From: Nitrospirota bacterium
GTDB lineage: Bacteria > Nitrospirota > Thermodesulfovibrionia > Thermodesulfovibrionales > JdFR-88
Direction of reading: 5' to 3'
Length of the DNA: 64,000 nt
Assembly (NCBI GenBank): GCA_021789555.1
Contig: JAJYJK010000001.1
Coordinates: 4,871 to 68,870, forward strand
Shown here piece by piece: positions 53,785-56,038 of the stretch (position 1 is its first letter; the number at the start of each line of letters is the position of its first letter). The notes below the pieces were generated by a model. It did not search any database. It had not been told where the DNA came from and worked only from the letters and a program-made list of their open reading frames with translations. Position numbers and translations under genes: made by a program.

Positions 53785-54636
53785 TCAGATGATGAACGAA
53801 AGCGCCGTGAACACGAAAACGGTGACGCTTATCCACCCGTTCATATTAAAAAAAGCGATATCAAGCCTGCTAAGGTCCTTCTCCTTCACCAGGGAGTGCT
53901 CGTAGATGAAGAATGCCGACACGAGGACGAGGCCGGCCCAGTAGGCCCAATTCATGTCCACAAGCGCTCCGGTCACGCAGAGCATTAGAACGCTTAAAAC
54001 GTGGAATGACCTTGCCGCCAGCAGGGATTTTCCGATGCCGTATCTTGCCGGCAGCGAATAAAGCCCGTATCTTCGGTCAAAATCGATGTCCTGCAGGGCA
54101 TACAGGACGTCGAAGCCGGCCAGCCAGAACACAACGGCGAAGGCGAGGCAGACGGCCCCCCATCCGAGGCTGCCCCGGACCGCGGCCCAGGCCCCAAGCG
54201 GAGAAAGCGACAGGGCCAGCCCAAGGAAAAAATGGGACATCCAGGTGAAGCGTTTCGTGTAGGAATAAAAGACCACGACCGCGATGGCCACCGGAGATAG
54301 CTCAAGACACAGGGGGTTTAACCTCCATGCAGCAAATATAAGAAGCGCGAAACTGGCGGCCGCGAAGACGGCGACCTCCGCGAGCCCCAGTTTGCCCGAG
54401 GGCAGCTCCCGGTCTTTCGTGCGCGGGTTCATGGCGTCTATCTTCCGGTCCACAATCCGGTTTACAGCCATCGCCCCCGAACGGGCCCCCACCATCGCCA
54501 CCGTTATCCAGAGGATTTTCGCCAAAGACGGATAACCTCCCGCCGCCATAATCGCCGCGGTAAACGCAAACGGCAGGGCGAAAATGGAATGGGAAAATTT
54601 TATCATCCGCAGGAAATGGACCAGGCGCTTGAACAT
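53785..54636 (-). CDS. UbiA-family aromatic polyprenyltransferase
   Basis: GARSGAMAVNRIVDRKIDAMNPRTKDRELPSG (first Asp-rich motif) and YALQDIDFDRRYGLYSLP (second motif). It is polytopic. Confidence 0.8.
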   Translation of the reverse strand: MFKRLVHFLRMIKFSHSIFALPFAFTAAIMAAGGYPSLAKILWITVAMVGARSGAMAVNRIVDRKIDAMNPRTKDRELPSGKLGLAEVAVFAAASFALLIFAAWRLNPLCLELSPVAIAVVVFYSYTKRFTWMSHFFLGLALSLSPLGAWAAVRGSLGWGAVCLAFAVVFWLAGFDVLYALQDIDFDRRYGLYSLPARYGIGKSLLAARSFHVLSVLMLCVTGALVDMNWAYWAGLVLVSAFFIYEHSLVKEKDLSRLDIAFFNMNGWISVTVFVFTALSFII

Positions 54637-54662: not shown

Positions 54663-55457
54663 TTATTTCCTGTCCCTTTTATGCCTGTTTAAAAGGGCGT
54701 CCACTATATTGGGCATCTCCTGCCTGCAGCGCGCATTCGGCATCGAGAAGGTCAGATGGGCGGAGCCGGCCTTTATCGAAATGGAGCTTACCTCATGGTC
54801 GCTGCTGACGACTACAACCACGGGGGCCTTTCGGATCGAGGGTATCCGTTCCAGTTGCTCGAACGCGCTGTAGGAGCTGAAAGGCAGGTTATTGGAATCC
54901 ACAATGATGAGTGCGGGATTGAACATCCTCGCCTCTTCAGGCCCCCGCACCGCCTTCACCTCGTATCTGTCTTCCGGTAATGACGGGATTTCAGCCGCGG
55001 TGGATACAAACAGCACCATTTTCCTTTCACCGGGCTCCGCCTCTTTCCAGATGGCCTCAAGTATCTCTTCCGCCAGGATGCCTTCCGCGTCAAAGTCCTT
55101 TCCCCACTTCGTATAACCGCCTATCTCCCTTTCCCTCTGCATGACATAGTGGGAGATCTTCCTTTGCTCGACTGCGTCCTTGACGAATTGCACCCCGCAG
55201 GTATTGTCCGCCACATTGACGGCCCTCCCGGTAAGCCAGCATATCTCATCCCCGGGCAGAAGGATGGCGAAATCGATGGCTGCGCCCGGCTGTATTAAAT
55301 TCTCGGCATAAGGGACGCTCAGCAAGACGCCCCCCAGGCTTATGTCGATTATCTTGATCCGTTTCGCAACCGCCCTAAATGCCTTGTTTTTGACGGCGAT
55401 CTTCAGGGGCCTCGAAACCGGGACGGGCACCCGTATATATTCCCGGCGATTTGTCAT
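54663..55457 (-). CDS. PilZ-domain c-di-GMP receptor with a C-terminal receiver-like/Rossmann-like domain
   Basis: Both canonical PilZ motifs are present: RREYIR (RRxxxR, 55431-55448) and DISLGG (DxSxxG, 55329-55346). The C-terminal ~130 aa (MVLFVSTAAE...LIIVDSNNLP...VVVVVSSD) look like a CheY-like fold. Confidence 0.8.
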   Translation of the reverse strand: MTNRREYIRVPVPVSRPLKIAVKNKAFRAVAKRIKIIDISLGGVLLSVPYAENLIQPGAAIDFAILLPGDEICWLTGRAVNVADNTCGVQFVKDAVEQRKISHYVMQREREIGGYTKWGKDFDAEGILAEEILEAIWKEAEPGERKMVLFVSTAAEIPSLPEDRYEVKAVRGPEEARMFNPALIIVDSNNLPFSSYSAFEQLERIPSIRKAPVVVVVSSDHEVSSISIKAGSAHLTFSMPNARCRQEMPNIVDALLNRHKRDRK

Positions 55458-55515
55458 GCTTTTTTAAAAAGATATCCTCCGTAAATTTCCTCAGAATTTT
55501 TTTATCCCGGTGACG

Positions 55516-55950
55516 CTATTTGCCCCTTTTCACTTGCCCCGTTTGCCCCGCCGCCTGTATAAAACCTTCCATGGAGATATTCACATAAGGCCTTTTGGGG
55601 TCGTTGCTGGTAATGAGGACGTTTTTTGCGATATAACCGTTTTTGCCCGCTGTATTTATCCTCACCGTGATGGTCCCTTTCCGGCCGGGCGGAAGACTTG
55701 CCGAACTGGCAAGCGCGGCCGTGCAGCCTCAGCCGGGCTTCAACCTTTCGATTACAAGCGGCTCATCGCCGGTATTCCTGAATGTAAAGCTTCCCTGGAC
55801 GTTTGAGCCGGCCGCCACCTTCCCGAAATTTATGATCTCCCTGTCAAGGGAAATCGCGGGCTGGGCGAACAGCGGGGATGGGGAATGGAAAAAAGACAAA
55901 AGGGATATACTGATTATAAGGACCCCCTGAAAAAGGCACAGACGTTTCAT
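55516..55950 (-). CDS. DUF1573-like secreted protein interrupted by an in-frame TGA (candidate selenocysteine, or a nonsense mutation)
   Basis: A signal peptide is followed by INFGKVAAGSNVQGSFTFRNTGDEPLVIERLKPG-TGA-GCTAALASSASLPPGRKGTITVRINTAGKNGYIAKNVLITSNDPKRPYVNISMEGF. The TGA (55729-55731) sits where the family has the first Cys of its CGCT motif. The frame stays open to the TAG at 55516-55518. Confidence 0.5.
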
Positions 55951-55979
55951 TATTCGATTATAAACAATCCCTTCGATAA

Positions 55980-56009
55980 TTGAAACGGCGGCCCCATATT
56001 TTTTATAGT
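55980..56009 (+). promoter_or_regulatory. Possible sigma70 promoter for uvrA
   Basis: TTGAAA (55980-55985), an 18-nt spacer and TATAGT (56004-56009), about 30 nt before the ATG at 56039. Confidence 0.35.
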
Positions 56010-56038
56010 AAAGGGTTGGATTTTAATTCGGAGTGTCT

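Follow-up and report, generated by a model that had tools for sequence, protein, structure and literature searches.

The region analysed here is a window of 64,000 nucleotides from the genome of a Nitrospirota bacterium (assembly GCA_021789555.1, contig JAJYJK010000001.1, positions 4,871 to 68,870 of the forward strand); positions given below are those of the window unless another contig or locus is named. On its minus strand, an ATG at 55950 opens a reading frame of 73 amino acids (55950-55729) that is ended by a TGA at 55731-55729. This TGA is the sole interruption of a longer frame: beyond it lie 70 further open codons (GCTAALASS...KRGK), which run up to a TAG at 55518-55516. The complete CDS (55516..55950, minus strand) is thus 144 codons long, the UGA being its 74th, and the site reads KPG-U-G-C-TAAL, where the UGA (55729..55731) is taken as selenocysteine (Sec), U74. 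The UGC at 55723..55725 encodes Cys76, which accompanies U74 in the U-G-C motif and does not vary in alignment A3. The initial annotation of this stretch had described the premature TGA with 70 in-frame codons behind it, and all of its coordinates were verified; its broader reading of the gene as a candidate selenoprotein is supported by the Sec-decoding genes of the organism, by the Sec/Cys alignment column and by a covarying hairpin, each of which is described below.

The gene is flanked on one side by a divergent uvrA (56033-58546, plus strand) and on the other by genes for a PilZ-domain protein (54663-55457, minus strand) and a UbiA-family prenyltransferase (53785-54636, minus strand). The PilZ and UbiA genes also adjoin the selenoprotein gene in close relatives. 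When neighbours were clustered over 30 loci, divergent uvrA adjoined the gene in 11 of them and the UbiA-family gene in 5, and no functional partner emerged from the gene neighbourhood of these 30 loci.

Translated through the TGA, the protein matches PF07610 (DUF1573) over residues 33-129 with 83.1 bits (cut-off 26.1) and PF22544 with 56.7 bits. Since the PF07610 match spans the TGA, the DUF1573 domain, a HYDIN-VesB-like Ig domain (55564..55854, minus strand), is complete only if that codon is translated. Residues 1-29 (55864..55950, minus strand) have the features of a Sec-type signal peptide: an MKR start, a hydrophobic core and an LFA followed by QP. The same ending, A-x-A and then QP, recurs in orthologues (AYAQP, LLAQP, VSAQP), and the protein is therefore predicted to be exported.

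An AlphaFold model built on a 32-sequence alignment (pLDDT 91) places residues 33-132 in an eight-strand beta sandwich, from which an N-terminal helix (residues 4-21) is detached, and it puts U74-G75-C76 in the turn that joins strand 65-72 to strand 77-81. A sequence search of the PDB gave no match below E = 0.08. Foldseek, starting from the model, found as the top PDB fold 2qsv, a Porphyromonas gingivalis protein of function not known (E = 4e-7), followed by Ig domains of the PapD/ASH/HYDIN type; for the modelled structure, these matches confirm the Ig-like fold class and offer no functional pointer.

The occurrence of the TGA in other genomes was examined in two samples. A search of the window's own genome and 60 relatives (61 genomes in all, E ≤ 0.001) found a homologue in 38. 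All 30 order-level orthologues (the window's own copy and the 29 relatives' loci that were fetched) carry a TGA in the same column and align collinearly with the window protein over their whole length; the motif at the TGA is U-G-C-[T/S/A]-A in 28 of them and U-R-x-C (UxxC) in the other two. In a wider sample of 301 genomes from the phylum, 145 matches passed E ≤ 1e-8, with an in-frame TGA in 106 and none in 39 (counted by hand). Ten additional TGA loci, drawn from further families and classes, read S-U-G-C as well, and the TGA column was identical in all 40 loci that were read by eye. The two UxxC proteins (L048 and L049) are variant selenoproteins, with U-R-x-C in place of U-G-C.

Homologues that lack the TGA fill the column with cysteine. 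Those of the same phylum have S/P-C-G-C-T at this point, and CGCT also occupies the column in homologues from Ignavibacteria, Chromatiales, Flavobacteriales and Opitutia; the Cys-form sequence, ...GCGCTAAL... or ...SCGCTAAL..., aligns directly with the TGA column, and Cys stood there in all 15 Cys forms that we looked at. The invariant residues of alignment A3 are N59, U/C74, G75, C76 and G105, with no further conserved Cys. Judged from this alignment, TGA and Cys in one column are the classical Sec/Cys pair, as the initial annotation had anticipated when it suggested that the TGA replaces the first Cys of the family's CGCT motif; the comparison of orthologues that it had recommended finds conserved Cys or TGA at exactly this column.

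The same data bear on the two simplest explanations of an internal TGA. The first, also raised in the initial annotation, is a nonsense mutation of TGC or TGT to TGA that has left either a pseudogene or a product cut short at 73 residues. It agrees with translation table 11, which puts a stop at TGA, and with the way in which ORF callers split the gene, but it is contradicted by TGA in the same column throughout the order, the class and the phylum, by the 70 downstream codons, which are conserved as protein and contribute to a complete Pfam domain, and by a covarying hairpin that follows the TGA in the TGA forms only. The second is an artefact of assembly or sequencing, in favour of which stands the state of this metagenome-type assembly, a draft of 108 contigs; against it, more than 100 independent assemblies, some closed genomes among them, have this codon at this very column. 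The recurrence of the TGA in over 100 independently assembled genomes excludes both a private nonsense mutation and an error in the reads, and we consider it extremely improbable that the gene is a pseudogene and give the idea of an artefact just as little credence.

The reading of the codon as selenocysteine draws further support from the RNA downstream of it. The nucleotides at 55696..55714 (minus strand) can form the hairpin GCUUGCC-AGUUC-GGCAAGU, which starts 14 nt after the UGA and has a stem of 7 bp, including a closing G-U pair, and a 5-nt loop whose positions 2-3 are G-U. Its core, the 6-bp CUUGCC-AGUUC-GGCAAG (55713-55697), lies 15 nt past the UGA, so that the loop begins 21 nt after that codon; it is the flanking G-U pair that lengthens the stem to 7 bp (55714-55696). 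In every Sec form, a hairpin occurs 14-17 nt past the UGA, with the loop AGUUC or AGUUCN. Two registers of the stem can be told apart: the window sequence and 8 others have a 5-nt loop (alignment A2), and the 27 sequences of alignment A1 have a 6-nt loop. Pairing in A1 extends to 94.2% of cells and drops to 20-42% once the partners are slid, double (compensatory) changes occur in all 7 pairs, and the observed covariation score was matched by none of 500 shuffles; in A2, 90.5% of cells are paired and double changes occur in 4 of 7 pairs.

Over the interval +12..+45, the Sec forms fold with a mean of -10.8 kcal/mol as against -5.0 for 15 Cys forms (Mann-Whitney p = 1e-5), and when their peptides are recoded with synonymous codons, stability falls by about 2 standard deviations. 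The hairpin also leaves its mark on the protein (55696-55722 in the window and the same stretch in relatives). Of 38 Sec forms, 37 use AGT as the first loop codon, out of the six that serine has, and the SECIS fixes Ser-Ser as AGU-UCN. The stem makes the amino acids that it encodes covary, through codons paired across the loop (AUG/CAU for Met/His, GCU/AGC for Ala/Ser and GUC/GAC for Val/Asp). The Cys forms are free of this constraint. In the two UxxC proteins, L048 and L049, the hairpin with its AGUUC loop sits 3 nt farther from the UGA, moving with the extra codon.

These observations support the inner hairpin as a conserved, covarying SECIS, beyond what chance would give, and bear out the proposal of the initial annotation that the 6-bp hairpin serves as one. 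That annotation had also suggested an outer GGCCG/CGGCC stem. The outer pairing does appear in the minimum-energy fold of the window sequence, but it is not kept in relatives (L022-L024 cannot form it), and we dropped it as a part of the SECIS. A scan of 55450-56050 against Rfam, with E up to 10, returned no SECIS and no other credible family, as is expected of bacterial SECIS elements.

Bacterial SECIS elements of the Escherichia coli fdhF type are stem-loops that directly follow the UGA, are bound by SelB and have a conserved G in the apical loop (PMC1976440). The hairpin described here resembles them in that it lies inside the CDS, 14-15 nt past the UGA, with a stem of 6-7 bp, a loop of 5-6 nt and G-U at loop positions 2-3. 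It differs from them in its family-specific AGUUC loop, in its two registers (5-nt and 6-nt loops) and in matching no Rfam model. A hairpin of the same general design is present elsewhere in this genome: a formate dehydrogenase (FDH) gene, on the same contig and outside the window (G000:C99, ~77.7 kb), has a UGA within CARVUHAPTV, and 11 nt after that UGA comes GUGGCC-GGUCU-GGCCAC, whose loop, GGUCU, again has G-U at positions 2-3.

The genome (2.85 Mb in 108 contigs) is equipped to decode such a codon. It has a tRNA-Sec (73 bits on RF01852; called SeC with anticodon UCA by ARAGORN) together with selA (584 bits), selB (361 bits) and selD (333 bits), all four above their curated cut-offs, so the Sec-decoding genes that the initial annotation had wished to see in the genome are all present. 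The selD gene, outside the window (G000:C66:13161-14087, minus strand), carries an in-frame TGA of its own, a UGA within GCAGUASKF. TGA is also the commonest stop of the genome, ending 792 of 1774 long ORFs, and we rejected a reassignment of TGA in the genetic code on this ground.

The genome has a second tRNA of tRNA-Sec-like shape. It lies outside the window (G000:C101:2301-2390, plus strand; L002:1501-1590 in the fetched locus), is 90 nt in length, has a long variable arm and the anticodon GCA (Cys), and scores 47.8 bits on RF01852, for which the gathering score is 47. Directly downstream of it is an ORF (L002:1622-2233, starting MIIDARGQSCPKP) that we take to resemble the selenium-metabolism protein YedF. 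The tRNA fits the selC* class of tRNA-Cys, which has been described in Nitrospirae, Firmicutes, Thermodesulfobacteria and Proteobacteria, in some cases with a UCA anticodon (PMC7609411).

Such tRNAs are the basis of another way to account for the open frame, namely that the UGA is read through as something other than Sec: as Cys, by a tRNA-Sec-like tRNA-Cys of the selC* type, or as Trp, by near-cognate suppression. The tRNA-Sec-like gene in this very genome and the published selC* genes with a UCA anticodon (PMC7609411) lend this idea some substance. The anticodon GCA of the selC*-like tRNA, however, reads UGC and UGU and not UGA, and we rejected this tRNA as the decoder of UGA74; further, the genome has a canonical tRNA-Sec(UCA) with the full selA/selB/selD set, and the hairpin after the UGA is SECIS-like and similar to the hairpin of the genome's own FDH. 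Read-through as an amino acid other than Sec is accordingly a very unlikely account, if a slightly better one than pseudogene or artefact. We call the TGA a genuine Sec codon, one that belongs to the gene for a small, predicted-secreted protein of the DUF1573/OS_HP2 family.

The gene is a member of a selenoprotein family that has been catalogued since 2007; its kind is already known, and the call is in this sense an ordinary one. The first report of OS_HP2 as a family of selenoproteins concerned the Olavius algarvensis symbionts (Zhang and Gladyshev, 2007; PMC1976440), it appears as “OS_HP2, pfam07610, UxC” in the GOS survey of 2008 (PMC2398784), and a DUF1573 selenoprotein with the motif UGC is included in two reviews (PMC9312934; PMC13188914). 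The window protein has both hallmarks of the catalogued DUF1573/UGC family, a PF07610 match above the gathering score and Sec in a U-G-C (UxC) motif, and it shares with OS_HP2 the existence of Cys homologues with CGC. Its best NCBIfam match is NF041425, “OS_HP2 family (seleno)protein,” a model of the subfamily_domain type that asks for at least 100 bits; the window protein reaches 82.7, below this curated cut-off, and nine relatives that were tested reach 72-82, all of them below 100 as well. These scores suggest a sister clade, within PF07610, to the sequences on which NF041425 was trained. The clade (72-83 bits) differs from OS_HP2 as modelled there in two more respects: it is widespread in the phylum, and 11 of 30 relatives have the domain fused to cytochrome c.

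DUF1573 proteins of the Cys form, such as those of Bacteroidota (the nearest solved fold is 2qsv, from P. gingivalis), have in common with the Sec forms the Ig-like sandwich and a CGCT in the same column. They differ in having Cys for Sec, in the absence of a hairpin after that codon and in the Ala-Ser-Ser stretch, which encodes the SECIS loop and is conserved in the Sec forms only.

The signature of recoding, the SECIS hairpin with its covarying pairs, the Sec-decoding genes and the place in the family are all observed; export and a redox or metal-handling role are inferred. The best overall explanation, and one that we hold with high confidence, is that the gene encodes a 144-residue DUF1573/OS_HP2 selenoprotein, predicted to be exported, whose UGA74 is decoded by means of SelB and the hairpin, and which probably carries a U-G-C redox or metal site in the periplasm. 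During translation, SelB with Sec-tRNA-Sec(UCA) and GTP would bind the hairpin (stem 55714-55696, loop AGUUC), and the complex would deliver selenocysteine at UGA74 in place of termination. Translation would then proceed via G75-C76 into the remaining half of the Ig-like sandwich, and the N-terminal signal peptide would route the product to the periplasm, where the U-G-C triad, in what the model presents as an exposed beta-turn, would most likely cycle between selenol/thiol and selenylsulfide or else bind a soft metal.

Tight vicinal Sec/Cys redox centres have precedents in the C-terminal GCUG of mammalian thioredoxin reductase and in the CXC motifs that act as disulfide-isomerase mimics. As in those, the spacing between Sec and Cys is zero or one residue, and a strained selenylsulfide may be possible; in fold and in cellular compartment, the protein described here is unrelated to them.

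Fusions to other domains add a hint of function. In eleven of the 30 orthologues (L030, L032, L034, L035, L036, L040, L041, L043, L044, L045 and L046), the Sec DUF1573 domain is followed at the C-terminus by a fused cytochrome c domain (PF13442/PF00034), which is some 100 residues long and has two CxxCH motifs; among the UxxC variants, L048 has an N-terminal SCO1/SenC domain and L049 a CarboxypepD_reg domain. Together with the signal peptide, the Ig-like sandwich with its U-G-C turn and the motif itself, the fusions to cytochrome c and SCO1/SenC suggest that the protein handles metals or takes part in redox chemistry in the periplasm, most likely by way of a selenol/thiol-selenylsulfide couple or a soft-metal site. 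The 11 cytochrome c fusions, with their two CxxCH motifs, and the one SCO1/SenC fusion further lead us to propose, tentatively and as an idea that we rate as less than likely, that the Sec DUF1573 protein of this phylum might be a dedicated periplasmic selenium redox or copper-handling module that exchanges electrons with c-type haems.

What the present analysis contributes beyond the known family is thus a gap in annotation, a covariation-supported SECIS and a set of fusions that may serve as leads. Its main value lies in the first of these: standard gene callers truncate the gene at the TGA, and NF041425, the curated model for this selenoprotein, misses the entire clade (72-83 bits against a cut-off of 100 bits), so that the members in the phylum are probably annotated as truncated DUF1573 fragments. 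For the DUF1573 family, we obtained a clean SECIS with covariation behind it, in which an RNA hairpin can be seen to dictate the peptide that it encodes (Ala-Ser-Ser, with paired Met/His, Ala/Ser and Val/Asp). The fusions to cytochrome c and SCO1 are the sole functional lead for the DUF1573 domain, and if a selenium redox or copper-handling module were indeed at work here, this would be the first mechanistic assignment for that domain.
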